NCBI GenBank assembly: GCA_027001995.1 | Contig: JALTLO010000134.1 | Span: 6,005-43,636, forward strand | Length of the DNA stretch: 37,632 bases | Origin: Planctomycetota bacterium | Lineage (GTDB): Bacteria; Planctomycetota; GCA-002687715; DRQF01 | Reading direction: 5' to 3' | Shown: in pieces, positions 30,001 through 36,000 of the stretch | Numbering within the stretch: the first letter of the stretch is position 1 | Layout of the letters: every line of letters begins with the position of its first letter | Position numbers: made by a program

Positions 30001-33000
30001 TCTGCTTGAGGGTCAATAGACACTTGAATGAAGCGACCTCGCTTCTCAGGCACCAATTGGATCTCCATAAACTTGGTCGGCAATTCGGTGAGCGAATGGC
30101 TCGACGACTCAAAGCCTTCTGCCAGTGCCTTTAGAGTGACCGGCAGATCAAGTTCACGTTTGCAACTAAATTCGAATCGGCCCTTCTCGTCGGTAATGCA
30201 CTTCAGTGGGTCACTCTTCTTCTCAAGCAGTACCACCGCACCCGCTATGGGCCGATTCGTCTTGAAATGTGTAACACTCCCGTGGACAACCACTTCTTGG
30301 CCCTTGCGGCGTTGGTCGGGGACACGACTAATCGATTGCTTGTCCGGACGTATCTCAAACTCAGCAATGGGGTTCAGTCCGGCGTCAGCGTCAAAAGGGC
30401 TCAAGAAAGAAAAAACTACATAAGCCAACAAAAGACCGAATGAGACAAAACAGACGCTCTTTGTTTCCATTCTAGCTGCCACTCACTGCCCCTTTCTGAT
30501 TGTGACCCTTAACATACCACTCTAATGATCGAGCGCTCGCCATGCAATGAACATGGCGAGCAACTTGAATCGAGATCCCTATCGACCGTAGACCTGCACC
30601 ACTTTCGGTCCAGAATCACGCTTTGCGAATCATCATTAGCCTTGGATAAGCACACTTCCACAATGTACCCAGGGTTTGATGCCTCGTTTAATCCAGACTT
30701 GGTATGTAGCGCCTGCTGGCATGGCGGTGGTCCCGCCTACTGCGAAGCTCGTGCTTGAAGCCCCGGCCAATGAAACACTATGCTTGGGCCCTTCTGAGCT
30801 GCTTGTCGTCTTCTGCGTGTATTTTTAGGCTGGGGTAGATGGACAAAGAGCCCGGCGATTTAGGGGGATGAGCCGCAGAGAAAGCGCATGAGGAGCGACT
30901 GGGAGGATGGGGATTTCTGGGCATCGAATGCCAAAATGAATCGCCTTGGGACGGGCTCTTCAGGAAAGGGAATTAGGCCTCTGAGGATGCGCCAAATAGG
31001 ACTGTGTCGGAAATCTTCGCGCCACCATTTGCACCAACGTTCCATTTGCACCAACGTTCAATTGTCCGGCGATCCGTGCCGAATTCACTTGTCAAAATGC
31101 TCAGCCGTTTGGCGGTTGGACCCTGGCGAAACGCCGCCACCAAAACCACGACAATGCCTAAGTAGACCCGGCGACCAAGAAAGCGTGATGAAGGAGGCAA
31201 TACTCGACGACGGCAGCCAGATTCGGCACAGCATAAGCCAAATCGGAGTTTGTGATGTGGTTCGAGATCCTGGGTGTTGCCTCGGGGCTGGCGCATAAAG
31301 TTCGCTTGATGAAGCTTGCCGCCACGGTGTTGGCACCCGGCTAACCTAACCTGATCGCGAAATTCTAGGTCAATTTCGAATAGAAGAGCCCAAAGGCTGG
31401 ATTTTGGCGGCAATGTTTGTGACAAAGTTTGGTCTCCGGGGGTTAGATATCGGAGACTTTGGCCTTCGCTGAACGCTTGTCAAGAGCTGGAAGTGAAGGC
31501 CTCTTTTTTTCTAGATGACGGCACCTTCGGTACCAAGAAGGATGGGGGCTCCGCCCCCAAAACCCCCGAGGTTTAAGAGGCATACCTCGGATGCCGACAG
31601 CCAAGATAAATGAGGTCAGTTGCCAACCGAGCCTCAAAGACCGTGGCGAAAAAAGCCCAAATTGCCCTTAAAGAACTTGGCTGCTGACAAGATACGACCC
31701 CGCAGACAAATATCATGGCATACCAAACACGCAACCAATCCAAACGAGCACTTCTGGAGCGCTGATTGAGATAAGATCATATACAACCTCAATATCCATC
31801 ATGTCCCATCGTAGCCCCAGAATGCCCTAATGACCATTGGGCCATGTCAGGCTGAGAAAGAAAACCGCATCAAGACCATTGAGAGATAGCGCGGTGCAGT
31901 GGGCTATCTGTCCGGCATCGCATACCACGACAGTTCCCGGCGAAATGGGATCGTGTGCGTCACATTGCGAAAGTTCCCGAATATGAAGGATCGCCGGAGA
32001 TTCGAATCTTTCGGTAGGGAGCTATGGATTCCTTTGCTTGAATTTGATCTGGGAACGAATGGGGAGCGTAGGTGACAGGACATCTGCTTTCTTGACTCGG
32101 CACCAAACCCCGAGGAGTGACGTCGATGAGATCAAGTCGAAGCAAGTCCGGTTGAATGGTTGACCGTAAGACATCTCTGTCAAGGCCCATGAGGGCCGCC
32201 AACTTGGCTTGGCCTGTGGGTAATCTGCTTGCTCCAAGAATCTCCAAGGCTTGCTTGTGGCGAGGGCCCAAGCCGAGACTGTCCAAACGCTTGCGACGAA
32301 GAGTCTCTTCAACCAAAGCTATGGTTATCGTGTTCTCGCCCTTGGCCAAACGTAAATCGCCTGCAGAAGCAAGAAGAGCCAGAGATTTCCTGGGGGTGCC
32401 CATAGAAGCCCGGGCAATCGCTTGGCAGGCCTCTTTTGCAATTTCTACTTGGGAAGCTTGGCGCACAATCTGGGCCAGATCGCTGTCTTCGTAGGCCAGA
32501 AGTTCTTCCTGCAAAACGAATCGATCCAAAAGTGGCTTGGGCATGAGATTGGGATGTGTGGTGGCCCCCACCACACAGATCTCCCCTTGGTCCATCATCT
32601 CATAGAATATTTCCGCTACCTGCTGGGGTAACCCGTGGATCTCATCGATCAAGAGAACTGAACCTTCTGGCACAAGCAGCTCGTCAATGGAAGATACAGC
32701 GGGCCCCGTCCTTGCCACAAAAGGTGCCCCACTCTCCACAGCCAAAGCTCTTGCCAAGGAGGTCTTTCCTAAGCCTGGAGGCCCCTGCAACAACACATGA
32801 CGTGGTGCCCGATTCTCTCTTTGAGCCGCCAAACAGACGATCCTCAAGCTTTCCCGCACCTCGTCTTGGCCCACCAAGTCATCTAACTTCTTCCCCTGGG
32901 CTGGGGTGGCCGAAAGGGGCCCACGTGGGCCAACTTTGGCGGATTCCATGTGAATTTTCGGTCCGACATGAAGCCTTTCGCCCTCCAAAGATCGTCCAGA

Positions 33001-36000
33001 ACGATCAGTGACCACCAAGTCAAAAGGAGCAACGCCAGATATTTTGAGGAAACCATCATGGATCATTCCGTGACAATGGGCGCAGACGCTAGTCAAATTC
33101 CCGAGATCATGACTCCCACCATTTTCTCGAAAGATGATGTGGTGGACGTGAAGATTACTGCTTCCTTGGCAGTGAACACAGCGGTGACCATCCCGTGCCA
33201 AAACCCGACGCCTGATGCGGGGTGGTGTTGGTGAAGAGTTCTTTGCCCCAACGACTTCACCATCGCAGCGAACTATCTCGCTTTCCTCTTGAGTCAAAAC
33301 GATTGGCCCATCTTCTGTTGCCAAGTGAGACTGCTTGCATTCTGCGCAATGGCTCACGTTCACTTGAAAAAATGAAGCGCCGTTTGCTTTCTTTTCATTC
33401 CCTCCTTGCTCAACTTGTCGCAAGTAATTCTCGGCCAAGAATTGCAGGAATTCACCATCACCCAAATCACCGCCAGATTCCTCATGAAGTTTCTTGCGAG
33501 CTTGCTCCAAGAATTCATGAGCCAAAGGCGCGAGCTTGGCAGAGAACTTGAACTTAACCGTGGGCACACCTTTGCCATCTTCTCTGGGTGGCCTTCCTGC
33601 TTCTGATCCCCGAACTTCCAGGTCTAAACGCTCGCAAGAGACCACGGCAGCCCTCTCCAACCAAGCCTTTTCGTTTTCTGGCGTGGCAATCTTCACCAAC
33701 AAGCGTACTTTCGACCAAGAAATATTGCTTTGGCAAAACGCTTCATCAATAAGAGGTAGTTCTTGCAAGGCTGCACCCACGGTGATCAAAGTGCGGGCCA
33801 GTCTTCTGCTCATCTCCAATCGCTGCCGAGCAAATTGAACAGCACTGACAAAGCCAAGGGCTTGGTGAAGACCACGGCTTTGCATGTCATGAAGATAAAA
33901 AGCCAAAGCACGACGGGCCACATCACTGCTGCGATTGTGCAACAAAAGAGTTCCTTCCAACTCCTGGGCATCAAGGCCAAAACGTAGATGAACGGCTGGG
34001 ATTTCATCTTGATATTTGGGGACAATACTCATGTGATTCTTCCGATTAGAGAGCTAAACCTGAATCAGCATCATAGTGTCTGAGGGGGTCAGAATTGGGC
34101 GAATGATCTCACTTTTAGAACGACGCCTTCGATGTCGTTTCGGTGTCGAAAAAACCAAAGCGGAGCGAGCCATTCTTGATTGCGCGTGTTGATTTTTATC
34201 TAAGGAAACATGATCGCTCGTCCATCCATAGCCGTGAACCAGGTGTTCCCAATATTGCCACTTGGGGCCACTGCGAAAGCTTGGATCATCAAGCTCATTC
34301 CACTCAATCCACTCGGAAAACAATAATTGAAAGTCATTCCCCCCGGAGGCAAGAAGCCTGCAGAAAGCCGGTGGACTTCGGGGTTTCGGATTTCCTACAA
34401 TCAATTAGGATTGGGCCATGAAAACTACATGGCAAGAAAAATACGCAGACAAGCGACTGAGTCCTGATCAAGCAGTTCGACGCATTGCACGGGGGAAACA
34501 CATTCAGATTAGTTCAGGTGCTTCCGTTCCTACAGCGCTTCTTGATGCCCTCGTCAAGAATGCAAAATATTTTGCTGACAACACAATTGTTCACTTGATG
34601 ACGTTTGGGGATGCGCCTCATGTGGCTCCAGAGATGAGTGGCCACCTGCGGCACAATGCTTTCTTCATTGGGTCAAACGTCCGGCAAGCTGTCCATGACG
34701 GCCGCGCCGATTACACGCCTGTTTTTCTATCCCGAATTCCATCTCTCATCAGGACTCGTAGAATTCCGGTTGACGTGGCAATGATTCAATGCTCACCCCC
34801 AGATGAAAACGGCTATGTCAATTTGGGGGTTTCCGTCGACATTTCCCTTGCCGGGATCGCCGCCGCCGACCTCGTTATCGCTGAGGTAAACCCCCAAGTT
34901 CCTATCGTCCACGGCGCTGGGTTTTTGCCCATGGACACATTTGACCATTGGGTGTGGAATGATTCTCCTCTCCAGACACACATAGCACCAAAGCTTGACC
35001 ACGTTTCCATCGAGATCGGTCGATACGTTGCTTCCCTGATTGAAAATGGCAGCACCATTCAAATGGGCATTGGCGCGATTCCTGATGCTGTTTTAGAAGA
35101 GCTTAAGGACAAGACAGACTTGGGTCTGTGGACTGAAATGTTCTCCGACGGGATTATTCCTTTAGTGAAAAGTGGCGTCATCAACGGGAAGCTCAAGACC
35201 CACCACCCAGGAAAGATCTCTTCGTCATTTTCATTCGGGTCGAAAGATCTCTACGACTTCATCGATGGCAATCCGATGTTTACCTTTCATCCCTCTGACT
35301 ACATCAATGATCCCGTTCGGATTGCGCAACAACATCAACTGGTTTCGGTGAACAGTGCCCTTGAGGTTGACTTGACTGGTCAAGTCTGCGCTGATTCCAT
35401 CGGCACAAAGTTCTTCTCTGGCATCGGCGGTCAAACCGACTTCGTCCGAGGAGCGAGCATGTGCCCGGGAGGTCGTTCCATCATTGCGTTACCATCAACG
35501 GCAAAGAAGGGAAAGATCAGCCGGATCACCGCCACGTTGACCGAAGGCGCTGGAGTAGTCACCTCACGAGGTGATGTCCGCTATGTGGTCACAGAGTTTG
35601 GCATTGCCGATTTGCTTGGTAAGTCGATTCGAGAACGGGCCATGGCGCTCATATCCATTGCTCACCCTGATTTTCGTGACGAACTCCTTGAATCAGCCAA
35701 ATCTCGCCACTACGTCTTTCAAAGGTCACACGTGCCTCGTGGACGCTATCCTCGAGAAATTGAGCGCATAGTAGAAACACGCCAAGGTGAGAAGTGTTTC
35801 CTACGCGCCATGAGACTCAGTGACGAGCAGAAGTTCCAAGATTTTCTATATCGTTCATCTGGGCAAGAGTCACATCAGAGGTTTCGAGAAATCTTAGAGG
35901 ACCTTTCCCACGAACGTCTCCAAGAATTCATCGACATCGACTACGAAGAGAAGCTGTCTCTTGTGCTGGAGCACACAGAGTCTTCCCTGGAAGCAGAGAT

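Follow-up and report, generated by a model that had tools for sequence, protein, structure and literature searches.

The window, the whole stretch of 37,632 nucleotides analysed from contig C134 of a Planctomycetota genome, carries at 31960..34032 a gene (open reading frame call and Pfam) for a 690-residue protein that joins a DUF222-like N-terminal domain to an HNH nuclease and a RuvB-derived AAA+ motor. The gene lies on the minus strand, as do all features given below except the palindrome. The Pfam matches (HNH, residues 285-326; RuvB_N, 381-485; AAA_lid_4, 514-584; RuvB_C, 586-643) reproduce those of a preliminary description of this DNA, and the Walker A (GPPGLGKT) and Walker B (LLIDEIH) motifs that it listed are both present. 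The final ~15 codons and the stop are probably derived from the flank.

The nuclease half of the protein

By structure comparison, the helical domain of residues 20-145 (33598..33975) may have a DNA-binding fold like that of ParB, Spo0J, KorB and Noc. The top rows, for ParB, Spo0J and KorB against residues 20-144, have a Z of 9.7 (rmsd 2.7, 106 residues aligned), a value below the ~13 that helical domains can reach by chance; Foldseek gives E>0.1, and identity is 10-18%. Unlike ParB, the protein has no Pfam match to the CTPase domain, and just 19 residues precede the fold. Residues 157-206 (33415..33564) form an extended strand and two helices, called ribbon-helix-helix-like here from that pattern. 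Both segments take part in the predicted dimer interface: the N-terminal dimer model scored 0.83 against 0.00 for the best control (pLDDT 84; at least 97% of contacts agreeing between runs), a mark that 20 of 30 solved pairs and 1 of 23 single chains also attained. The N-terminal region, with its putative ParB-type helix-turn-helix, is thus predicted to dimerise; passages of PMC7383237 describe ParB as reading parS as a dimer on a palindrome.

The HNH core (residues 285-326, 33055..33180; Pfam and alignment) retains C285, C288, H297, H298, N312, C317, C320, H321 and H325, and McrA and TagI are nearest to its fold. Residues H298, H321, K423, D463, E464, T491, R504 and R548 occur in all 84 aligned proteins, whose mean column identity is 24%, and dN/dS between copies is 0.04-0.21 in every folded domain (a near-identical tract left out), which indicates purifying selection. 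Both the nuclease and the ATPase are apparently live.

A RuvB-derived motor

The C-terminal half had been described as a complete RuvB. Its AAA+ core and lid (residues 381-583, 32284..32892; Pfam, Foldseek and alignment) and winged-helix head (residues 586-643, 32104..32277) do supply all three subdomains of the RuvB of RuvAB, and Walker A (417-424), Walker B (460-466), sensor 1 (T491), the arginine finger (R504) and sensor 2 (R548) are retained; the best Foldseek matches are all RuvB (E 1e-25, rmsd 2.2-2.8), and the 30% identity over 291 residues reported to the ordinary RuvB was recovered as 30.6% over 291 residues to the host RuvB on C135. Unlike a housekeeping RuvB, however, the motor sits behind a nuclease and has lost the RuvA-binding presensor-1 hairpin (~20 residues), which would fall between residues 485 and 486 (32575..32580). 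Five further residues are absent after Walker A, the signature ED reads DQ (Asp-Gln) at 481-482, the Arg-Pro ahead of the AAA start (the Arg21 equivalent), retained in 25 of the 84 aligned proteins, is absent, and in the head TPRG is retained and the next Arg has become Leu. With scores below the cut-offs of both NCBIfam equivalog models (PRK00080, 177 bits against 282; TIGR00635, 160 against 299), the protein does not carry a complete RuvB.

Passages of PMC9477746 describe the hairpin as binding domain III of RuvA, and the hairpin, the signature Glu-Asp and the N-terminal Arg as mattering for branch migration. Lacking all three, the C134 motor may be a plain translocase, and by its residues would at best be RuvA-independent; neither ruvA nor ruvC lies beside the gene, and the host's own ruvA and ruvB are intact elsewhere. 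The Walker residues, arginine finger and sensor 2 do not vary in any of the 99 fused RuvB domains. Among these, the hairpin is present in 82 and short in 16; it is short in none of 59 others. Most members also have a 45-residue linker domain: hairpin and linker domain occur together in 70 of 98 fused proteins and are both absent in 17, as they are from the C134 copy, whereas the hairpin occurs alone in 11 and the linker domain alone in none. This linker domain could be a stand-in for RuvA domain III.

Copies and borders in the genome

Copy comparison places the whole element at 32010..34150, with fuzzy borders at both ends. The count of at least three whole and five broken copies, eight in all, was too high: two copies are whole (C134 and C41); the C28 end and C63 start are probably one copy, since 9 nt are common to both and one runs on into the other over a repeat that matches C134 exactly; the three genes on C199 are one decayed locus; and C39, with a 5' half, and C193, with a 3' end, could belong to a single copy or to two. 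The genome holds a minimum of 5 and a maximum of 7 loci, plus remnants of 50-130 bp. The paralog identities (88, 53, 88, 96 and 74%) and DNA matches between copies were reproduced.

Likeness between copies, said to stop near C134:40104, does end there in its strong form (near 34100 of the window), whereas weaker likeness reaches about 34148 through a segment (34092..34148) that begins near GACACC/GGCACC and is common to four close copies. Between -130 and -72, four of the six pairs among these copies are significant (p<0.02 against 400 shuffles), and further upstream of -130 none of the same pairs is (400 shuffles). A rough 3' border can be set, contrary to the earlier view, as the coding sequence that the copies have in common tapers off around residues 672-676, at about 32010. 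Neither terminal inverted repeats nor a target duplication was found at the ends, as had been noted; Pfam and NCBIfam profiles found no transposase or recombinase domain in the protein, and an insertion sequence (DDE, HUH or recombinase) was rejected on these grounds.

The copies lie in unrelated flanks with no insertion site in common, as described before. A search for an empty site with both flanks joined returned one-sided empty contexts alone, and none of 4 runs of contigs had a joint skipping the element. Most copies have ordinary neighbour genes; the C41 copy, assigned earlier to a defence island, indeed adjoins genes for a DruE-like helicase and an Old nuclease. A tract of 126 nt (33405..33530; copy alignment) is identical to the C63 copy. 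Over residues 155-260 the dS between these two copies is 0.018, whereas the rest of the gene gives 0.24-0.45; either one copy has converted the other or the assembly has produced the effect. With dS of 0.24-0.68 the copies are old, no two of them are near-identical, and they give no sign of present activity.

Relation to the DUF222/13E12 repeats

The resemblance of the N-terminal domain and HNH to DUF222/13E12, raised in the preliminary description, agrees with a sensitive feature search and finds no echo in Pfam: DUF222 (PF02720) has no match in the protein at E<=0.01, and its matches in 3 of 65 relatives (E 0.001-0.003, 17.5-18.8 bits) fall below the cut-off of 24.4. In the Atlas feature search with residues 15-260, a lead that comes without alignment or E-value, 21 of 30 matches lay in DUF222-bearing clusters, with scores of 0.97 for a cluster in which 15% of members have DUF222 and 0.91 for one with 93%. 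This half belongs with the DUF222/13E12 repeats. Like the DUF222-HNH/REP13E12 genes of Actinomycetota (PF02720 + PF01844), it encodes a helical N-terminal domain followed by HNH and is dispersed in many copies; unlike them, it has a Planctomycetota host, a fused RuvB motor and no Pfam DUF222 match. Passages of PMC13061034 describe gene conversion between REP13E12/DUF222 copies, and passages of PMC3381160 a prophage attachment site within mycobacterial 13E12 repeats.

The family is much larger than the 10 outside proteins reported at E<=1e-140, with 307 representatives (50% clusters) at E<=1e-30, and the full build of N-terminal domain, HNH and RuvB is found in 78 of the best 150 relatives. Its distribution within the phylum is patchy (matches in 46 of 401 genomes, none in 355), copies group by host genome on the tree in genome-specific expansions, relatives have several copies per genome, and many copies are truncated or decayed. 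Relatives that lack RuvB are also multi-copy and reach higher numbers (32 matches in G113, 21 in G226), so that the wider family can spread without RuvB. On trees, the fused RuvB domains group together as a single clade (SH-aLRT 99, 41 rows; FastTree 1.0, 158 rows), and on the tree of N-terminal domain plus HNH (56 loci) the presence or absence of RuvB changes 2 times, against 18.5 with shuffled labels; RuvB was probably captured once, in one Planctomycetota branch, and was lost secondarily at least once (L058). Unrelated flanks, clustering by genome, patchiness and purifying selection support the earlier proposal of a selfish single-gene multi-copy unit. Its further claim of a new, homing-type kind of element is at odds with the DUF222/13E12-like half, the multiplication of RuvB-less kin and the lack of a shared insertion site.

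A palindrome and a repair-type promoter

Two features had been overlooked. A perfect 14-bp palindrome, GGCCCACGTGGGCC, lies in the linker between HNH and RuvB (32918..32931, no strand assigned). Of 63 loci, some of them closely related, 17 have a palindrome with arms of at least 7 bp centred 122-165 nt past the last HNH His, compared with 36 of 2221 control windows; the 46 loci without a perfect palindrome in the fixed window count against the model given below. The palindrome differs in sequence by lineage and keeps its position after HNH. For GGCCCAYRTGGGCC, the genus has three genomes with 7, 2 and 5 sites respectively, where 0.12 would be expected in the present genome, and six other genomes of the family have none; another lineage's palindrome has 16 sites in G007 only and none in 8 other genomes. 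Each palindrome tested is thus confined to, or enriched in, genomes with the matching element variant. Remnants of 51-133 bp are centred on the palindrome, and solo palindromes, mostly intergenic and often at gene ends, lie in part far from any copy of the element; arrays are also seen.

The leader contains a PafBC-type promoter motif, TGACCCC-N9-TATGAT (34070..34091), also found ahead of host recA and lexA; the PafBC consensus spacing is given in passages of PMC8635444 and PMC8151990. A genome scan gave 18 matches at spacing 9, lexA and recA included, against 3-8 at nine other spacings. With a matrix trained on only 7 recA/lexA sites, 4 of 5 element leaders fall within the top 132 of 10.4 million positions, a list that also holds ruvB, ssb, a 5'-3' exonuclease, smc and a topoisomerase A subunit. 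All 9 of the family genomes have pafB-like and pafC-like genes side by side, and together these observations are evidence for a PafBC-type regulon in Planctomycetota. Against the model, 34 of 66 leaders have neither upstream motif, in a comparison whose controls are coding DNA. Passages of PMC3381160 describe mycobacterial 13E12 genes as damage-induced from this RecA_NDp/PafBC type of promoter, a likeness recognised here by the motif.

A model for copying, and its alternatives

At the level of sequence, the domain build, catalytic residues, dispersed copies, promoter motif in common with recA and lexA, and lineage-specific palindrome are established. That the element is selfish and has an active ATPase is, in our view, probable. 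On balance we lean slightly towards a selfish gene of the DUF222/13E12-HNH type that captured a host ruvB, is induced by damage and is copied by way of its palindrome. DNA damage would switch the gene on through a PafBC-like activator of the host, while RecA and repair synthesis are at hand; the N-terminal dimer would grip the palindrome through two ParB-type helix-turn-helix domains; and HNH would nick or cut close to it. Host recombination and repair synthesis would then copy stretches of differing length outward from the palindrome, either onto a sister copy or into a new site, in most cases between genes. This would account for the fuzzy ends and truncated copies, and for the conversion tracts and the palindromes that stand alone. 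Loaded by the N-terminal domains rather than by RuvA, the fused RuvB ring would pump DNA, migrating the junction or extruding the palindrome as a cruciform, and so lengthen the copied tract as a 2-kb gene needs. We regard copying that starts at the palindrome with help from the motor as quite possible, while inclining a little to doubt it. The preliminary description had already proposed that an HNH cut and the gene's own RuvB motor drive copying; both catalytic sets are conserved, but the RuvB is not complete.

Purifying selection on all domains, the repair-type promoter, the DruE-like and Old genes beside the C41 copy and the McrA/TagI-like HNH fold would also suit a damage-induced nuclease-translocase that serves its host in defence, cell suicide or repair, its motor tracking DNA, its HNH cutting foreign or damaged DNA, its palindrome a self mark or an operator through which it regulates itself and its copies made by ordinary duplication and transfer; passages of PMC4181829 propose, computationally, that 13E12 HNH proteins act with RuvAB in repair. 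We consider this unlikely, given the 355 of 401 genomes without a match, the ordinary genes around most copies, the many truncated or decayed copies and genome-specific expansions, the solo palindromes distant from any copy, and PADLOC 2.0 models that match stretches of 34-50 residues only and never the full length. The gene might instead be selfish and move by its parent family's route, its RuvB half not driving copying, for example entering or blocking host RuvAB so that repair intermediates last. The success of RuvB-less relatives, the loss at L058, the degenerate RuvB-specific residues and the intact host ruvA and ruvB speak for this; the residues invariant in all 99 fused domains, however, fit a working ring of its own, and the hairpin, never lost while the linker domain stays, points to a role within the fused protein, and we judge the reading rather unlikely.

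A classical free-standing homing endonuclease, whose gene spreads when a single conserved empty site is cut and then mended by homologous repair from the flanks, is very improbable: it would fit an HNH with a separate DNA-binding domain and the near-identical tract between two copies, but is largely refuted by unrelated flanks and the lack of a single conserved target. With the candidate recognition site located within the gene itself, the target is also left uninterrupted by the gene. Nor is it probable that the palindrome has nothing to do with the element, as a repeat of terminator or REP type that some other enzyme spread and that came to rest in a flexible linker; we give this a small chance. 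Solo copies are indeed mostly intergenic and often at gene ends, and a separate palindromic family, GACCACGTGGTC, is present in the genome at 14 sites with no link to the element, but different palindromes occupy the same post-HNH position in separate lineages, and those tested follow the genomes with that variant.

A wider form of the model is tentative and, on balance, doubtful: DUF222/13E12 genes in general might be self-addressed, a ParB-like dimer reading the in-gene palindrome and HNH opening it in the damage response, with copying outward and, in this branch, a RuvA-free RuvB ring migrating or extruding the junction. If true, this would be a way of moving that uses no transposase, recombinase or reverse transcriptase and no fixed homing site, and the protein would be a nuclease-motor in one chain that a palindrome addresses. 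The repeats are common, damage-induced and recombination-prone, and still lack a defined function according to passages of a 2026 preprint (PMC13061034); the lineage-varying candidate site, the predicted ParB-like dimer and the captured motor, which points to a junction intermediate, are three handles that make that function testable. Promoter and palindrome suggest how a poorly understood selfish gene family copies itself, and the fused motor would be a natural RuvA-free RuvB.

Comparison with other systems

The HNH domain is shared with free-standing HNH homing endonucleases, which differ in having a fixed insertion site, and with OMEGA IscB, which was rejected: the IscB model matches residues 273-327 only (51 bits against 175), the 690-residue protein has no split RuvC domains, and no Rfam family reaches gathering level in 30400-34500 as an omega RNA. 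REP/BIME sequences with their RAYT transposases also have a lineage-specific palindrome in or beside an enzyme gene, as solo copies and arrays, and the element resembles them in this; unlike them, it has an HNH and AAA+ enzyme in place of an HUH/Y1 transposase, and far fewer solo copies. For the 13E12 repeats, the passages cited mention no element-specific palindrome. Databases name the fused proteins simply 'RuvB', and the family is hidden under that label.

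Copies and borders of the element

The gene of the element (window 31960-34032, minus strand) encodes a 690-residue protein with matches to HNH, RuvB_N, the lid and RuvB_C, and its closest named relative, at 72% identity, comes from a Planctomycetota bin. Two whole copies, on contigs C134 and C41, are present in the genome assembly (5.2 Mb in 204 contigs, the window being C134:6005-43636). The pieces on C28 and C63 most likely represent one split copy, given their 9-nt overlap and their continuity across an exact repeat common to C134; C39 carries a 5' half, C193 a 3' end and C199 a single decayed locus. 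The multi-copy state reported in the preliminary description thus stands, while its count of at least three whole and five broken copies becomes five to seven loci. DNA identity among close copies is 84-94%; two element copies share a near-identical tract, and no young identical copies were found.

Strong likeness between copies does stop near 34100, as first described, but weaker likeness extends to about 34148 (p<0.02 in four of six pairs); at the 3' side it dwindles within the final codons, near 32010. Neither terminal repeats nor target duplications mark the element ends; an insertion sequence was rejected as its identity. A search of the element region for RNA families returned none. A lone 128-bp remnant of the element's winged-helix end lies at C54:10398-10525.

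No empty site with both flanks was found in the sister and related genomes examined. The upstream neighbour of the element is flanked differently in the relative G002, and four relatives yielded no match to its downstream neighbour. In a sister genome the element is absent beside hemE, beside a sulfotransferase-like gene and beside the neighbour of one G002 copy; the far flank is non-syntenic at these sites, so that no border is readable. Four runs of contigs contained no joint skipping the element, and two joints in them correspond to deletions in the C199 copy. In X1, possibly the source sample, depth summed over the gene was 40-58 and that of the flanks about 10; the excess agrees with several copies, though the figure is not a copy number. 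Viral contigs contained no relative, and locus searches driven by alignment were unsuccessful because too few stretches are conserved.

The N-terminal half and the HNH domain

The likeness of the N-terminal domain to DUF222/13E12 proteins, raised in the preliminary description, gained ground: residues 15-260 group with DUF222 clusters in the Atlas. Pfam yields no more than weak DUF222 matches, in three of 65 relatives scanned from the best 150. In the structure model (pLDDT 84.5), residues 20-144 resemble the DNA-binding domains of ParB, Spo0J and KorB (Z 9.7, rmsd 2.7, 106 aligned residues); Foldseek gives this likeness a probability of 0.97-1.0, yet with E>0.1. Part of this half looks ribbon-helix-helix-like. 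Modelled in two copies, residues 15-215 are predicted to form a symmetric pair (score 0.83, best of three controls 0.00, contact agreement at least 97%, pLDDT 84), the score mark being one that 20 of 30 solved pairs and one of 23 single chains reach and that may be passed through resemblance to solved structures. The modelled HNH domain resembles the McrA, TagI and IscB types; IscB was rejected as the identity of the element.

A RuvB-derived motor

All top structural matches of the motor are RuvB, and K423, D463, E464, T491, R504 and R548 are unchanged in 99 of 99 fused domains. Among copies, dN/dS ranges from 0.09 to 0.14 in the AAA core and from 0.06 to 0.21 in the head. The window copy is nevertheless not the complete RuvB it had been taken for: it lacks the presensor-1 hairpin and the equivalents of the signature Glu-Asp and of Arg21. 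A housekeeping RuvB was likewise rejected. This hairpin, which is described as binding RuvA domain III (PMC9477746, from which the residue roles are taken), is short in 16 of the 99 fused domains and in none of 59 others.

Most fusions carry a 45-residue domain in the linker, which had no Atlas match at or above 0.9. Across 98 rows, domain and hairpin are both present in 70, both absent in 17, and the hairpin stands alone in 11, several of which look divergent; the domain never occurs alone. Among independent pairs, the two features changed alike in 5.4 of 6 and never oppositely (sign test, median p 0.06). This co-occurrence suggests that the linker domain may substitute for RuvA in cis and that the line of the window may have dropped both domain and hairpin.

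Distribution and origin of the fusion

Among 1.84 billion representatives, 307 matched at E<=1e-30. Within the best 150 of these, the profile of N-terminal domain plus HNH was matched by 148 and that profile plus RuvB by 99, with the full build in 78. The former profile was found in 46 of 401 genomes of the phylum, at only five candidates scored per genome. The fetched loci include 28 full fusions from 17 genomes in five families (one duplicate row removed), and all named full-length fusions are from Planctomycetota, the one phylum searched genome by genome. Relatives without RuvB are likewise multi-copy.

Copies cluster by genome in a tree of the N-terminal domain plus HNH from 56 loci (midpoint root, long-branch warnings), on which the RuvB label requires 2 changes against 18.5 when shuffled. 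In RuvB trees the fused domains form a single clade adjoining the RuvBs of Planctomycetota. From these trees, RuvB was probably captured once and then lost in at least one line.

A palindrome in the linker

The linker between HNH and RuvB contains a perfect palindrome, GGCCCACGTGGGCC, at 32918-32931. Different lineages carry different perfect palindromes at an equal distance past HNH: a perfect palindrome occurs there at 17 of 63 loci, kin included, against 36 of 2221 control windows, leaving 46 loci without. There are 7, 2 and 5 sites of GGCCCACGTGGGCC in three genomes of the window's genus and none in six other genomes of the family, with 0.12 expected in the window's genome. The palindrome of the relative G007 has 16 sites, in that genome only, and a third has 27 in G244 and 18 in G273, with 6, 1 and 0 in three other genomes (controls 0-3). 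Searched as a broad pattern, the palindromes of five other genomes were enriched in only three of them. In the comparison table, palindrome and helix residues did not clearly covary.

Element pieces of 51-133 bp centred on the palindrome are scattered in the window's genome, where bare solo palindromes are mostly intergenic; in the decayed copy on C199, half of the palindrome is gone. Arrays of palindrome units occur in G273 and G244, where such units also lie 3' of copies. As some RuvB-less relatives carry a palindrome too, it is, on this distribution, older than the RuvB fusion. REP palindromes and their RAYT transposases are a comparable pairing of palindrome and enzyme.

In G226, tandem arrays of about 70 bp that include short palindromes lie 3' of the genes of RuvB-less copies (L094-L104). 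The commonest perfect 12-mer palindrome of the window's genome is GACCACGTGGTC (14 sites), the centre of a repeat of about 120 bp on C7, C49, C66, C107, C125, C142, C179 and other contigs; we found no link between this repeat and the element.

A damage-type promoter motif

The element leader carries a PafBC-type motif, TGACCCC-N9-TATGAT, at 34091-34070, with the spacing of the consensus tGTCgg(N10)tA(N3)T as given for PafBC (PMC8635444, PMC8151990). The pattern TG(A/T)CCCC-N9-TA-N3-T has 18 genome matches, sites before lexA and recA included, against 3-8 at nine alternative spacings. Related sites lie upstream of recA in the relatives G002, G007 and G017 and, in the first two, also upstream of a lexA gene; none was seen before recA in six more distant genomes examined. 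With a matrix built from seven host sites alone, four of five element leaders, C199 being the lower-scoring exception, fall within the top 132 of 10.4 million positions; the same list holds ruvB, ssb, a 5'-3' exonuclease, a topoisomerase subunit and smc, plus many unrelated genes. Tandem pafB/pafC-like WYL genes are present in all nine family genomes (for example C188:13400-16000, L287), and the strict motif in 13 of 66 leaders across the family. Mycobacterial 13E12 genes are described as damage-induced from the same promoter type (PMC3381160). We infer that the element gene is induced by damage. The pafB/pafC-like genes and the motif before recA, lexA, ruvB and ssb would moreover amount to a PafBC-like damage regulon outside Actinomycetota.

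Of 66 leaders, 20 (e.g., L063, L081, L084, L111) contain a second upstream motif, GTT(A/C)-N7-GTT(A/C), against 4 of 186 coding controls. It matched host recA/lexA leaders only sometimes, and we therefore dropped the label of LexA box; it also precedes some lexA-type operons, and a second LexA-like repressor, with a small ORF ahead of it, may use it as its box.

Proposed working of the element

What is directly seen is the domain build, the conservation of the active sites, the dispersal of the copies, the promoter motif and the palindrome. The element works like a DUF222/13E12 repeat and, despite missing the Pfam cut-off, is probably a distant member; a classical homing endonuclease was rejected, contrary to its first designation as homing-type. 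In the cycle we propose, damage would activate the gene, the N-terminal dimer would bind the palindrome and HNH would nick the DNA, related small HNH enzymes being described as nickases (PMC3592412). Host recombination would then copy outward over a variable distance, and the RuvB-derived ring would move the junction or extrude a cruciform, without RuvA.

Such a cycle would account for the fuzzy ends, the palindrome-centred remnants and the near-identical tract of two copies, and the high gene-conversion rate described for REP13E12 loci (87 events; PMC13061034) would fit it. Counted against it are the lack of an empty site and of young identical copies, an activity that is only predicted, the absence of a perfect palindrome at most loci, and relatives that do without the motor. 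That the protein is instead a nuclease-translocase serving its host seems to us unlikely, and slightly less probable again is an indirect role for the RuvB half. In the literature searched, without subscription papers, no title or abstract describes a fusion of HNH with RuvB or a palindrome in DUF222 genes.

Neighbouring features

Just beyond the element's 3' end, a separate repeated piece (30805-31690) is 97% identical to C113, and its end at 31520-31690 recurs on five more contigs. Neither Pfam nor NCBIfam gives a match for its ORF at 30973-31425, and the repeat is probably debris of another mobile element. A stand-alone 100-aa HNH protein (3531-3833, minus strand) matches the family profile in its HNH part only. 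The gene run at 25455-28537 (minus strand) resembles a section of an integrated element: it encodes a DUF3150 protein, an AAA ATPase and a DUF1232 protein and includes two small unknown ORFs. A DDE_Tnp_1_4 transposase gene lies at 19961-21346 (plus strand). Around the divergent copy on C41 (6000-22000, L121) is a defence-like cluster with a DruE-like helicase, an Old nuclease and a PifA-like NTPase.
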